The notes: a model not told the origin generated them from the sequence alone. Shown: positions 30,331-40,015, counted from the stretch's first letter. The stretch: DNA of 64,000 nt from Haliotis cracherodii (GCF_022045235.1 NW_027266330.1:15624001-15688000), one strand, 5' to 3'. A program made the numbers and translations.

Positions 30331-30600
30331 TTTTTTATAGGAGAGTCACTGACACCCACCCTCCTGATTGGTTCCCCAGGCCGCGCCCCCGATTGGTTCG
30401 TTTCGGGGCCTGGTCTGCACCTCGGTTTTCCAAAACGGACCGACCCCTGTGTTTCTTTTCCATAGGAAATGGATTTTACCATGGGAGAGAAAGCACAACC
30501 CCGGTTCGACCATTCAGAGTCCCGCATGACCCGAGCACGGTCTCTGATTGGTCGACAACCCAGGCTTCGGATTGGTCCAATTTCGATCCGGTTTTTTTTT
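30331..30600 (-). promoter_or_regulatory. Shared CCAAT/TATA promoter cassette, copy A
   Basis: Homologous to 33403-33618, 38015-38322 and 39705-40015; several CCAAT boxes, TATAAAA ~50 nt before the ATG. Confidence 0.8.
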
Positions 30601-30809
30601 TATCGGGGTGTGCATTTCGATCCTGTTTTGTTTTTCTTCATCCTACAGACCACAGAACACGACTATGAGTTTTTAAAAAAAATTTAATCCCCTCGCTCAC
30701 ATGAACCAACACCACAAAACAAAAAGTCACAGGATGAGGGGGCCGTCCCTGTGACTTTTGTGAACACTGGGGGTATGAACGTCTGTACACTTTGAAAAAA
30801 GAAACGTTG

Positions 30810-31322
30810 TCACTTGGGGTGAACAAGACACTCGACTCTTCTCTTCCGTGCTTCTTGGGACACCAAACGTCTGTATTTTTCGTTCACTTCTCCATCAGGA
30901 CAAAACACACACAAGTATTCGCAGGGCACTTTGGCGTGCTTCAGATGTTCTTTCCAGGGTTGGTCTGTGGCTTCCCATTGGCGGAGTGACACACCGCAGC
31001 AATAACAGGTCACACAGTCACCTTGTCCTGGATAGAAATAGCCAGCCATGGCCATGTCATACGGGGTCTGGGTCATCTGTTGAGGCCACGTTTTAAAAGA
31101 TCTCAGACGTTCTTGAAATGAATCATAGTGAGGATGAGAAGGATGACACAGGGTGTAAGAAGGAAAAGGTCCCTCCAGAATGTCACTGAGTCGCCATGTG
31201 TCGTCCCTAAAGAGGGAACGTTTTCTCGCTTCTTGTTCTCTCGCCTTTTCAGACACCCACTCGGAATCGGTGACGACATCTCGGGAGGATGACATGGCAT
31301 TCATAGAACGTCTTTGCTCCAT
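30810..31322 (-). CDS. Single-BIR inhibitor-of-apoptosis-like protein 1 (170 aa)
   Basis: BIR signature RLRSF..WP...MAMAGYFY.GQGDCVTCYCC...WEATDQPWKEH...C; CATAAAA upstream near 31370. Confidence 0.9.
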   Translation of the reverse strand: MEQRRSMNAMSSSRDVVTDSEWVSEKAREQEARKRSLFRDDTWRLSDILEGPFPSYTLCHPSHPHYDSFQERLRSFKTWPQQMTQTPYDMAMAGYFYPGQGDCVTCYCCGVSLRQWEATDQPWKEHLKHAKVPCEYLCVFCPDGEVNEKYRRLVSQEARKRRVECLVHPK

Positions 31323-32079
31323 GATGACGGTGACTTCACTGAAAGAAGGTCTGAGGGTTCGCCTGCTTTTATGAAACTCTACACCCTACTCCCTTCCACG
31401 GAAGGTCATGACCTTAGCTTCCACCTCCTCCTTCACCTCCTCCACCTCATCACGTGACGTCATCCTGTGTTTGGGTTGACGGACACACGGCATGATTCGT
31501 GACACGATCCATGACATGACATGGTACACGGGGAGGGGGGTGTGGGGATCGATGCGTACTGGAATGACCGACACCAGGCAGCTGATCTTTCAAGCATGGC
31601 CTTTCTCTTTTATCTATTTTTTATTTTAATTTTACACTTGGGTGTGCACTGACATGACAGATGCACAGACAGACAGACGGACAGACAACGTCAACGACAT
31701 CTCAACTCAACCTCTACCCTCGGTTCGGCACTCTATTGGAGTTGAGATCAATCAAGACACAAAGAGTCAGTTCAATCAATCACTGTTTAATCATGAAAAA
31801 AAACCAATCACAACCAGATACAATGGAAATACGAAAAGTCAATGGAGGAGGGAGTGCTTTGCATGTCCCTACAACAACCACAACCACAACAACAACAATA
31901 ACGCGACAACGTTTTCCTCTTCCATCTTCAAGCCCATAAGAGGTGGTCCTCCCTCAACCCTGTGAGAGGTCCATCCGTTCAACACGTACAGTCTATGGTC
32001 TCCCTGAAACAGACATGACACATCACTTGATCACGGTTGCAGCTTACGTGTTGACAAGTTCTTCGAGTGAAGAGGAGGA

Positions 32080-33170
32080 TCACCATAAGATGTGATCCTC
32101 AGCAGATGTGATAGGCATGTCATCATGTGTCATTATGCGGTCATAGGTCAACATACTACAAGTACAGTCTATGAGCTCCAGACCACAGGTATGACACATC
32201 ACTTGCCCGCTGTTGCAACTGATGTATCTTAACATGTTGTTGTGTCGGCAAATACGACATCCGCGTTGTAGGGGAGTGAGTTGAGCTTCTCCATAAGGAT
32301 CCAGGTCAACGTCGTTGTCATCCACATCATCATCATCATCTTCATCATCGTCGCAAACCAGGGGCGTACCTGAGGAGTAGACATGAACATCTTCCGGGGA
32401 TGTTGGTGACCAAGAAGCCTCAAGCAGGGGGAGCGTGTCCAGATCCATGGAAGGGAGAGTGGCCAGCTTGAGCGCTTCATGATCCTCACGGTCACCCGTC
32501 GCCATCGTCACAGCAGGGGCATTCGGTGAATAGGTGGGCTCCCGAGGGGTTTGTTCCCACCACTGTTCTAGCACGGCCTGGGTTGAACTGACATCAGGGG
32601 TCCTGTCAATCATAGGACAGAGTCCATTTATCATAGGAATAGGTCATGAATATGAATCACATCAAGAATGACTGAGACAAAGAAGAGCAAGGGTACTTAC
32701 AGCTGTTCTTGAGGAGAGATCTTCAGAGATAATTTCTTCCGTGATCGTCTTTTTGCAGGCGTTGCAGGTTTCAAAAAGGATGTCCCCATCGTTTCGATGT
32801 CTGTGGTCGCTGCAGCCGTTGTTGCTGTTGCTGATGTGGTGGTGGTGATGGTGGTGGGTGTTGCTGCTGCTGTGGGGATCACAACGACTGTGGGCTTGCT
32901 TGTCTTTTTCTTCTGGATCTTCTTTATCGTCTTCTTCGATGTGCCTTTCTCGGGTTCAGTCAGCTTCCTCATCTTTGAACGTATCTGTTCGCACATCAGG
33001 TTGTCGCCCTTCGCACGTAACTTGGCGTACGCGTCGTCGGTCTTCATCTTTAAACACAGCAAGTCGTACACTTCACCCCACAGTTCAGCAGTCATGTCAC
33101 CGTTCCCATCTCCACTGCTTCCTTGGCCACTCATGTCGCTTCGTGTCTTGTCATTCAATCGTTTCGACAT
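32080..33170 (-). CDS. Spliced E1A-like protein (exons 33170-32701 and 32602-32080; ~330 aa): basic N-half, LxCxD plus acidic tract, CxxC-x17-CxxC Zn finger
   Basis: GTAAGT donor at 32700 and TTGACAG acceptor at 32603 join two ORFs in frame (98-nt intron); PLVCDDDEDDDD then GCRIC...VMCHTCGL; AATAAA on minus at 31620-31625. Confidence 0.75.
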
Positions 33171-33402
33171 GATGTTGTCCGGATGTTCTGTTCGTTGTTG
33201 TTTCTTTCCAAGTCTTCACGGAGGTGTGTCAACACTTGATGGTACTCTCTCCAAACACGTGTTTCTTCCAGATAAAACGCCAACAACCAACACAACGTGA
33301 GGAACATCAATCAGAGGGGGGCGATGTGGTTGCTTGGTCCGTTCAGTGAAAAGTGATGACCGGAGAGCATCGGGCGTATTAAAAGCCACGGAGGTCCTGC
33401 TT

Positions 33403-33618
33403 TCTGATTGGTCCGTTCCGGTGTCTGGTCTGAGTCTCCATTTTTCCAAACTGGACCGACCCTTGTGTTTCTTTTCCATAGGGTTAGGCTTGTAGCGTGA
33501 GAGAGAAAGCACAACCTCGGTTCGACCAATCAGAGCCCACCATGGCTCGAGCACGGTCTCTGATTGGTCGACAACCCAGGCTTCGGATTGGTCCGATTTC
33601 GATCCGTTTTTTTTTTTT
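33403..33618 (-). promoter_or_regulatory. Shared CCAAT promoter cassette, copy B
   Basis: Diverged copy of the cassette directly after the PolB stop and upstream of the E1A-like gene. Confidence 0.75.
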
Positions 33619-38322: not shown

Positions 38323-38337
38323 GTGATAAAATCAAGA

Positions 38338-38796
38338 ATGGCTGAAACAAAGAAGAGTGGTACGACGACGACGACGCGTGGCGAAGATGTGGGAATGGAT
38401 GGTACAGATACTCGTGCATGTTGGAGTAAGAGTCATGCCGAGGAGGCGGTGTCACTGCTCAGTCAAACACCATCGCACTATTATCTGCGCTTTGAAAGAA
38501 GGCTCGCTTCGTTTGAGACGTGGCCCACGCAAATGTATCAGACTGCTGAGGAGATGGCTCATGCGGGTTTTGTCTACACTCAGGGTGCCGATGGTGTGTG
38601 CTGTTTCCAATGTGGTGTGCGGCTGAGACAATGGGCACCCCACGACAATCCTTGGGCGGCACATCACAAGTGGTCCCCAGACTGCGATTACCTCAAGCTA
38701 ACCGGGCTGGTGAAACACCAGAAGCAACTACAACTACACTATCTCTGCGAAGAGAAACAGAGGTACACGAATGACGTAGCAGAGCCGGCTGCCTAG
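38338..38796 (+). CDS. Single-BIR inhibitor-of-apoptosis-like protein 2 (152 aa)
   Basis: RLASFETWP...MAHAGFVY..GADGVCCFQC...WAPHDNPWAAH.KWSPDC; first ATG at 38338. Confidence 0.9.
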   Translation: MAETKKSGTTTTTRGEDVGMDGTDTRACWSKSHAEEAVSLLSQTPSHYYLRFERRLASFETWPTQMYQTAEEMAHAGFVYTQGADGVCCFQCGVRLRQWAPHDNPWAAHHKWSPDCDYLKLTGLVKHQKQLQLHYLCEEKQRYTNDVAEPAA

Positions 38797-39107
38797 GAGG
38801 ACGACGTTTCCCGTGTCCTGCGTTCCCGTTCAAGTTCCCGTTCCAGTTCCCCGTTCAAGTTCCCGTTCCAGTTCCCGTTCAAGTTCCCGTTTGTCTACAG
38901 TTGTTGTTGTGGATGGTTCAATCTGTTTCCGCTTCCTGTTTCCAACAAACTTTTCTTTTTTTTTTGGACCCACAAGTGGTGTCACGGTGGTCACCCCGAT
39001 GACATACCCAGATGGCAGCAAGTACCCCTTCGACGATCCTTGTCTTGTCATAAGCTTGGACATGATCATTCTTCTTGGACAGCAGCAGAAAAGTTTTCTT
39101 CTTTCCC

Positions 39108-39150
39108 AAAACGGCCCTTTTCAGGGCCACCCATCTCACCCAAAAGACAA
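39108..39150 (+). terminator. Histone-type mRNA 3' stem-loop plus downstream element (for IAP2)
   Basis: AAAAC-GGCCCTTTTCAGGGCC(39113-39128)-ACCCA-TCTCACCC-AAAAGACAA; AATAAA further downstream at 39238. Confidence 0.85.
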
Positions 39151-39704
39151 CTTTCTACCTTTGCTTTGCCAAACAATGACAATCCAAAACAAAGAACCCA
39201 CACCCTCCCCTAGGCCTCTTGGAGGCACACGTCTAAAAATAAAATAAATAGATATAAATATAAATAGATCAATAGAGACACGTGGTACACTACGTGTGCA
39301 TGGAGACACGAGTCAAACATCACGTGTGCATGAAAACACGTGTCACAGTACGTCTGTCGACTTACACGGGTGTCAACACCTCGGTATCCTTAAATAATCA
39401 TAATAATAATAATTTGAAGACACACACACACACAGGACACCACGTGTACATGACGTTCACATCGCGACACTACGTTTTGCCTGACCACACGCTATTCTAT
39501 ACATCAACGTCAACGTCTGTTTGAAGACATACACACATACCCACACACACACATGCACACATGACATTCCGATTGGCATGGGAGTGACACACACGTACAT
39601 CACGTAGGCATTCCCACGTTCATGTCTACCGATGAAGGTCCACCTTCCTTTAGCATTCAGACGACCGTCTACCTCAAAAAAAAATACCAAGGCTACCCAA
39701 GAAG

Positions 39705-40015
39705 AAAAAAACCGGATCGAAATGGGACCAATCCGAAGCCTGGGTTGTCGACCAATCAGAAGCGGTGCTCGGACCAGGTGGGGCTCTGATTGGCCGAACC
39801 GGGGTTGTGCTTTCTCTCCCATGGTAAAATCCATTTCCTATGGAAAAGAAACACAGGGGTCGGTCCGTTTTGGAAAACCGAGGTGCTGACCAGGCCCCGG
39901 AACGAACCAATCGGAGCTGCGGTCTGGCGAACCAACCAGGAGGGTGGGTGTCAGTACCTCTCCTATAAAACAACAGTGGATTCGAGTGGGTCAGTGTCAC
40001 TTGTAAAATTGATTC
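39705..40015 (+). promoter_or_regulatory. Shared CCAAT/TATA promoter cassette, copy D
   Basis: CCAAT boxes near 39728, 39752, 39789 (reverse) and 39907; TATAAAA 39964-39970; leader shared with copy C. Confidence 0.8.

Follow-up and report, generated by a model that had tools for sequence, protein, structure and literature searches.

In a stretch of 64,000 nt from the abalone Haliotis cracherodii (GCF_022045235.1 NW_027266330.1:15624001-15688000; hereafter the window, to which all positions refer unless another locus is named), a promoter-like cassette occurs four times, each time directed into its own separate open reading frame (ORF). What carries these cassettes, and how would the genes behind them be expressed? 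An initial annotation, made from the sequence alone, described them as CCAAT-rich promoters of modular, histone-like expression units, built by duplicating a promoter-ORF-stem-loop module and swapping its cargo. The reused, promoter-like cassette has been borne out, but its setting had been missed: the four copies (A-D) sit within an 11.9-kb Polinton/Maverick of abalone (window 29014-40915). Three of the four units (A, C, and D) combine a CCAAT array, a TATA box, an intronless ORF, a histone-type stem-loop, and an AAAGA motif, and the design of an ORF followed by such a stem-loop is also present in two unrelated Maverick families. This anatomy suggests that the element borrows the DNA-replication-timed expression route of its host. 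Judging from these sequence features, we consider it fairly probable that accessory genes of these Mavericks are expressed by way of the SLBP/U7 pathway for replication-dependent histone mRNAs.

Non-histone ORFs with histone-type 3' stem-loops

Past the stops of ORF A, BIR2, and ORF D follow, in the sense orientation, stem-loops A, C, and D, at distances of 133, 316, and 10 nt, respectively; all three score above the gathering score (34 bits) of the Rfam family Histone3 (RF00032; Table 1). The exact stem-loop 16-mer occurs three times in the window and was absent from 100 shuffles. It is listed among human histone stem-loops (PMC7807067), and the 20 nt formed by the stem-loop and its ACCC tail, GGCCCUUUUCAGGGCCACCC, are the same as the wild-type SLBP competitor RNA given in PMC1635294. 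A candidate downstream element, AAAGA, is located 14 nt past each stem in the window and is complementary to the conserved UCUUU box carried by the histone-binding region of U7 (PMC5054213).

The ORFs behind cassettes A, C, and D encode a zinc-knuckle (zf-CCHC) protein, a BIR protein, and a protein of no family. None of them encodes a histone, and the units are therefore not histone genes, however they work. ORF A and BIR2 align to full-length homologues without intron gaps, and ORF D is one open frame. Homologues of ORF A formed four Haliotis clusters, 89-98% identical across the searched part, and all 12 clusters of BIR2 homologues at E<=1e-15 were from Haliotis. No family was obtained from Pfam, PHROGs, or the atlas comparison for ORF D or for the protein of module B; ORF D gave only weak zinc-finger leads (atlas score 0.88).

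Traces of the same layout were found in other Haliotis gene models, where they appear as mis-predicted exons: a stem-loop behind a CCHC ORF (P0121), cassette D after BIR2 (H. cracherodii P0136), and a cassette-derived frame at the head of the H. rufescens model P0003 (E 1.5e-8) of pPolB (the protein-primed DNA polymerase B), that is, a cassette ahead of pPolB.

The hairpins are tied to the ends of the element. The inner edges of the left and right terminal inverted repeats (TIRs) are formed by stem-loops A and D, respectively, and stem-loop C belongs to an internal, decayed copy of a TIR inner end, in which a weaker match continues to about 39204 and a TIR repeat unit follows at 39215-39231. 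Similarity between the 3' untranslated regions (UTRs) of modules A and C reached a score of 42 against a maximum of 41 in 500 mononucleotide shuffles, both regions being pyrimidine-rich; this marginal result was not used.

The promoter-like cassette

Self-comparison of the region by blastn recovered all six cassette pairings (E 1e-33 to 1e-110), at the places and on the strands first described and each pointing into a different ORF. The cassette is thus real, but what all four copies have in common is a core of ~210 nt rather than the ~270 bp proposed. On the aligning copies, the pairwise identity of this core was 93.3% for A-D, 86.6% for A-C, 86.1% for both A-B and C-D, 84.1% for B-D, and 78.5% for B-C. 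Homology beyond the core extends towards the TATA box in A, C, and D, and on into the 5' leader in C and D. Two blocks of 15 and 19 nt, the longest invariant ones and the conserved core named in the initial annotation, are unchanged in all four copies. Allowing up to three mismatches, the 19-mer matched four times in the window (mean 0.03 in 100 shuffles) and nowhere in the window outside the element.

The several CCAAT boxes reported per cassette were also found: 5, 4, 4, and 4 on both strands, as compared with means of 0.4-1.2 in dinucleotide shuffles (P 0.0005-0.024). The strict form RRCCAATSR occurs three times per cassette and in 0 of 2000 shuffles. The boxes are laid out as a distal pair with a spacing of 24 nt, followed by a proximal box or pair. 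TATA-like boxes (CTATAAAA in A and D, CATAAAA in C) are located about 55-70 nt ahead of conserved start codons, and cassette B has no box of that form, in agreement with the initial annotation. All seven occurrences of TTTCGATCC in the window are at a cassette end. In the alignment, none of 30 CCAAT and GATCC columns is variable, as compared with 65 of 178 other cassette columns, the motifs having been picked after viewing the alignment. Cassettes B and C carry 25 private differences each. The informative sites are a mosaic (three AB|CD, two AC|BD, one AD|BC), which indicates exchange among the cassette copies.

GATCC ahead of a TATA box is presumably a histone promoter motif; our search of the open literature returned no paper giving mollusc histone promoter motifs. 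Clustered CCAAT plus TATA, taken in the initial annotation as typical of histone and cell-cycle promoters, is not by itself diagnostic of a histone promoter. Two sets of frames overlapping the cassettes were rejected. A plain ORF scan opens a long frame within cassette A (a 282-aa version of ORF A); this frame is an artefact, because homologues start at or after ATGs 58-70 nt behind the TATA box, and the 105-149-aa frames across cassette C are translated promoter.

Cassette C lies 76 nt from the pPolB ATG, and the divergent pPolB and BIR2 starts are 399 nt apart; the cassette is a candidate bidirectional promoter that may serve the two genes.

The carrier, a reduced Polinton/Maverick

The element is a GC-rich island (~50% vs ~38%) bounded by inverted repeats, and the characters listed in PMC10748475 identify it as a Polinton/Maverick. 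Its two TIRs show no mismatch and a single 16-nt microsatellite gap, and their lengths (535 and 551 bp) and the 6-bp target-site duplication (TSD) are within the ranges of Polintons/Mavericks (100-1500 bp and 5-8 bp, respectively). The evidence from the TSD is weaker than usual because the insertion site is a GTA microsatellite. The nearest relatives of the pPolB were H. cracherodii gene models (98-100% identical segments) and H. rufescens (91%), and homologues at E<=1e-20 numbered 2240 among 5677 candidates.

No integrase was found: 63 frames of the element gave no rve match, and the integrases of two Maverick loci described below (L008 and L002) gave no tblastn match in the window at E<0.1. 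Likewise, no ATPase, protease, or capsid gene was found by Pfam in the 63 frames or by tblastn with the L008/L002 query ORFs, of which the capsid-slot queries are putative capsid genes, judged so from their place and conservation alone and matching nothing in Pfam, PHROG, or PDB. We infer that the element is a recently inserted, non-autonomous derivative without integrase or virion genes. Among the named matches, close and mostly full-length homologues of the cargo came from Haliotis only (four clusters for the zinc knuckle, 12 for BIR2), which points to a multi-copy family.

Apart from the hairpins, the TIRs (29014-29400 and 40500-40915) contain a 39-40-bp repeat array and dense motifs that we take to be CRE-, ETS-, E-box-, YY1-, and NRF1-like. 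A similar set of motifs is present 3' of the hairpin at the L002 end (8490-8580).

Table 1. Positions of the features of the abalone Maverick in the window.
Feature	Position	Strand	Remarks
Left TSD, GTAGTA	29008-29013	.	inside (GTA)n microsatellite
Left TIR, 535 bp	29014-29548	+	starts AGTAGT
Stem-loop A, histone-type 3'	29505-29550 (stem 29530-29545)	-	Rfam Histone3, 36.4 bits
ORF A, 200 aa, zinc-knuckle (CCHC), basic C-terminus, intronless	29679-30281	-	PF00098, E 1e-13
Cassette A	30328-30628	-	blastn; TATA box 30339; two outward TTTCGATCC motifs
BIR1, 170 aa, single BIR	30810-31322	-	PF00653, E 1.4e-20; not a cassette unit
ATTAAA/AATAAA polyadenylation-like signals behind module B	31620-31630	-
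Two-exon gene of module B (exons 33170-32701 and 32602-32080)	32080-33170	-	no Pfam family
Cassette B	33403-33646	-	blastn; directly behind pPolB stop; no canonical TATA
pPolB, 1422 aa, open frame	33671-37939	-	PF03175, E 6.6e-35
Cassette C	38015-38322	+	blastn; between divergent pPolB and BIR2; TCGATCC-N11-CATAAAA 38255-38279 (CATAAAA at 38273)
BIR2, 152 aa, single BIR (IAP-like), intronless	38338-38796	+	PF00653, E 1.1e-22
Decayed internal copy of TIR inner end, with stem-loop C	39107-39231	+	93.5% over 62 nt to TIR
Stem-loop C, histone-type 3'	39108-39153 (stem 39113-39128)	+	Rfam Histone3, 36.8 bits
Cassette D	39696-40013	+	blastn; TATA box 39964
ORF D, 112 aa, Cys-rich, intronless	40019-40357	+	no family
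Stem-loop D, histone-type 3'	40363-40408 (stem 40368-40383)	+	Rfam Histone3, 35.6 bits
Right TIR, 551 bp	40365-40915	-	ends ACTACT
Right TSD, GTAGTA	40916-40921	.	identical 6-mer to left side

Stem-loops in other Mavericks

A polymerase-alignment scan of prokaryotic genome assemblies (GTDB representatives) yielded 28 Maverick-type loci (L001-L028). These are animal-type Mavericks, some of them complete, in records of bacterial metagenome-assembled genomes, and probably represent binned host DNA. The abalone cassette matched none of the 28 by blastn. A histone-type hairpin 19-30 nt past the stop of a short non-histone ORF was found in three (L002, L008, and L009). For the exact pattern, the probability by chance in the 230 kb is below 0.001. 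The L002 hairpin (Rfam 35.8 bits, above the cut-off) lies 28 nt behind a C2H2 zinc-finger ORF, which is likely part of the element by its contiguity with the integrase block. L008 and L009 represent one complete Maverick, are 97.9% identical to each other (with TIRs in L008 and genes for ATPase, integrase, and protease), and contain three tandem promoter-ORF-hairpin units with the hairpin 19-30 nt past the stop. Their hairpins keep six of six pairs, one of them by wobble and one by a two-sided change. In two of the three L008 units, as well as ahead of a divergent ORF that lacks a hairpin, TCAATCC is located 10-11 nt ahead of the TATA box, with the same spacing as in cassette C.

A relaxed hairpin scan gave 22 rows, of which 10 were counted (sense strand, up to two mismatches) and seven were reverse-strand readings of the same hairpins. 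Five rows with three mismatches (L009 -111, L021 -288, and window 30395, 38211, and 55622) were judged to be chance, and Rfam matches of L009 to mir-9457 and mir-153 were discarded, being far under their gathering scores.

In our phylogenetic analysis (FastTree, 441 columns from 43 polymerase segments, rooted at the midpoint; loci represented by segments <250 aa excluded), the pPolB of the window grouped with those of Haliotis, Patella (limpet), oyster, and L008/L009 (support 0.97), and L002 fell in a different clade, so that the design is either ancient and frequently lost or arose more than once. The identity of pPolB across the hairpin-bearing Maverick families is 41-44%.

Two other genes of these loci were recorded. 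L002 carries a TATA-binding-protein-like gene (7189-7695; PF00352, E 1.2e-27) adjoining the Maverick integrase, and L008 carries, on the strand opposite its three hairpin units, a zinc-knuckle ORF without a hairpin (5531-6172) that weakly resembles ORF A (33%, E 8e-5).

Proposed mechanism

We propose that NF-Y would bind the CCAAT boxes and RNA polymerase II would start behind the TATA boxes of units A, C, and D; SLBP would then bind the hairpin and the U7 small nuclear ribonucleoprotein would pair with AAAGA, so that the zinc-knuckle, BIR2, and Cys-rich mRNAs would be cut after ACCCA and carry no poly(A). Synthesis, translation, and decay of such mRNAs would follow the timing of histone messages, in S phase and perhaps in oocytes and cleavage embryos. 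Metazoan U7/SLBP ends carry S-phase control through the availability of SLBP (PMC9169081, PMC10730174). A self-replicating DNA element would then profit from helper proteins that oppose apoptosis and bind nucleic acids. In the opposite direction, cassette C probably drives pPolB as well.

As for the origin of the units, the promoter-ORF-stem-loop module of the initial annotation does exist, but duplication of the Maverick termini explains its build better than free shuffling, because two stem-loops are TIR inner edges and a decayed copy of the repeat contains the third. The copies would have come from duplication of element ends followed by replacement of the ORF. Cassettes A and D, the closest pair, are mirrored beside the TIRs; cassette C would represent an older right end with the decayed TIR behind it, and cassette B would have been reused for an ordinary spliced and polyadenylated gene. 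The term histone-like, which had been applied to all four units, is appropriate for A, C, and D with their true Rfam Histone3 matches, but not for B, which is TATA-less, spliced, and followed by AATAAA.

Several observations weigh against a histone-type output. The window hairpins represent one TIR-maintained sequence (two copies) plus a TIR remnant (the third), and with this shared origin they do not count as three independent choices. AATAAA is present at 39238-39248, ~110 nt past stem-loop C, and, with 133 nt in A and 316 nt in C, the 3' UTRs exceed the 40-80 nt reported for bdelloid histone genes (PMC2642717). The RefSeq model P0121 has the stem-loop as coding, which counts against processing there if the model is RNA-based. 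The L008/L009 hairpins score 25-33 bits, under the gathering score, with the third copy missed by Rfam, and have no clear AAAGA. Twenty-five of the 28 loci are without a hairpin, including the long L003, L015, and L021, many others being short fragments. Finally, the promoter of cassette B serves a spliced, AATAAA-ended gene without a stem-loop, and hence the cassette alone does not imply histone-type output.

The same hairpins could instead be compact terminators that shield replication origins in the TIRs, with the cassette as a generic NF-Y/TATA proliferation promoter and no histone-like timing. Two of them do stand exactly at the TIR inner edges and face outward, the L002 hairpin also faces repeat-like terminal sequence, and cassette B shows that the promoter can serve an ordinary gene. 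We nevertheless regard this explanation as unlikely, although it deserves serious consideration, since the L008/L009 hairpin units point inward, away from the nearer TIR, and the hairpins lie 19-30 nt past their own stops. It also overlaps in part with the histone route, because a U7/SLBP end brings S-phase control in metazoans. That hairpin and promoter no longer function, being remnants of a host histone gene that was captured, had its ORF exchanged for another, and has been carried along by TIR copying, would fit the derivation of three window hairpins from one TIR sequence, the homogenised TIRs, and the read-through in P0121. Such remnants appear improbable to us: no histone domain was found in the 63 element frames or in the module ORFs of L008/L002, hairpins are perfect and have correct flanks in three Maverick families, with stem-preserving changes, and five of the seven distant hairpin copies are outside any TIR-homogenised stretch in L008/L009. 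Moreover, the motif columns of the cassette have not changed while B and C have accumulated their private differences.

The cassette itself could be interpreted in other ways. A cis element with a role in replication, recombination, or packaging, rather than a promoter, might account for the two longest invariant blocks, which fit no nameable factor motif, and for the exchange seen in the mosaic sites; with Polinton replication origins expected at the termini, CCAAT pairs spaced by 24-25 nt, and TATA boxes 55-70 nt ahead of conserved starts, we give this idea very little weight. Least credible in our opinion is a dispersed host repeat or miniature inverted-repeat transposable element inserted four times into the Maverick, a possibility that the initial annotation had itself raised. 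Only cassette A, flanked by a 12-nt T-rich direct repeat, recalls such an insertion. The cassettes have no TIRs of their own (end-to-end local scores 12-18), B, C, and D share no flanking duplication, and there were no copies in the 52 kb of the window outside the element; each of the four lies at promoter distance from the ORF that it faces, and a 5' leader is common to C and D.

If the proposed expression through the SLBP/U7 pathway is correct for these elements, it may be more general. We consider the chances even that, as a wide strategy, a range of marine-invertebrate Mavericks/polintoviruses would make accessory non-histone genes as true histone-type mRNAs, from swappable promoter-ORF-hairpin slots giving captured ORFs S-phase/oocyte timing.

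Comparison with known systems

The element resembles other Polintons/Mavericks in its pPolB, long TIRs, 6-bp TSD, AGT ends, and accessory ORFs near the ends. It differs in its size of 11.9 kb, as compared with 13-25 kb (PMC10748475), in its lack of integrase, ATPase, protease, and capsid-slot gene, and in that its accessory genes end in histone stem-loops. With metazoan replication-dependent histone genes, the units share a short intronless ORF, a TATA box, a 6-bp stem with a 4-nt loop, AAC and ACCCA flanks, and a candidate downstream element that is purine-rich, and the divergent gene pair flanking cassette C, ~400 nt apart, is reminiscent of the divergent pairs of histone genes, which are ~300 bp apart in Drosophila (PMC10730174). 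Unlike those genes, the ORFs are non-histone and located in a mobile element, and A and C have longer 3' UTRs.

Module C, with its stem-loop and an AATAAA ~110 nt further on, would be comparable to H2A.X, which has dual 3' ends (stem-loop and poly(A) site); however, H2A.X is a host histone (PMC7807067), whereas the module C ORF encodes a BIR protein and both of its ends are predicted. Human cytomegalovirus (HCMV), a virus with a DNA genome, depends on SLBP (PMC9169081), but it blocks histone mRNA processing and relocalises SLBP, and no viral histone stem-loop mRNA is named in the portion of that source available to us. A preprint on large DNA viruses (10.64898/2026.10.14.759114), as far as its accessible text goes, found no encoded SLBP or processing factors and leaves cis elements unaddressed. 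Our literature search, whose reach did not include Repbase reports, the original Polinton/adintovirus papers, or supplements, returned no paper linking Polintons/Mavericks with histone stem-loops.

Unit B, BIR genes, and neighbouring sequences

The gene behind cassette B looks ordinary. It has a 98-nt GT-AG intron (32603-32700) with a predicted in-frame junction, which is also present in the homologues P0137 and P0139 (both gene models), and no histone stem-loop was found downstream of it. The protein has a basic N-terminal half and a Cys-cluster C-terminus. The N-terminal half (32700-33170) is rich in Lys, Ala, Thr, and Pro and bears a resemblance to a linker-histone tail that Pfam does not support. 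A second, out-of-frame copy of the Cys-cluster is located at 31934-32056 (76% DNA identity to 32158-32220).

BIR1 has its own promoter-like region (31373-31462; CRE/E-box, CATAAAA). On its 3' side are a long hairpin at 30715-30765 (region -31.3 kcal/mol, no shuffle control), which is not of the histone type, and then ATTAAA at 30688. BIR1 and BIR2 are ~51% identical over the domain. The BIR2 homologues (12 clusters), from two abalone species, have been annotated as IAP/XIAP-like genes of the host, and at least some abalone "host" IAPs are probably Maverick cargo.

Elsewhere in the window, an open 865-aa P-element/THAP-type transposase-like ORF (PF21787-9) was found within 53433-59405, with 366-aa and C2H2 ORFs nearby on the other strand, and a decayed Tc1/mariner transposase (HTH_Tnp_Tc3_2, under the cut-off) at 15082-16045. 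Satellite arrays of 86/89, 68, 70, 50, and 60 bp occupy 49135-50937, 60496-63213, 43021-43770, and 59-883, and there are several dispersed families resembling short interspersed nuclear elements, including a tRNA-like head at 19270-19341.

Significance

According to published descriptions (PMC2642717, PMC5054213, PMC9169081), no cellular mRNAs other than those of replication-dependent histones have this stem-loop end. If our proposal is true, this histone-only rule would be broken by non-histone genes of at least three families of Mavericks, and they would be the first virus-like elements and the first non-histone genes known on the histone mRNA pathway. Transcriptomes prepared by poly(A) selection would miss these genes. 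For the Mavericks, which are known almost only from sequence, the stem-loops would provide the first concrete handle on the timing of their expression.

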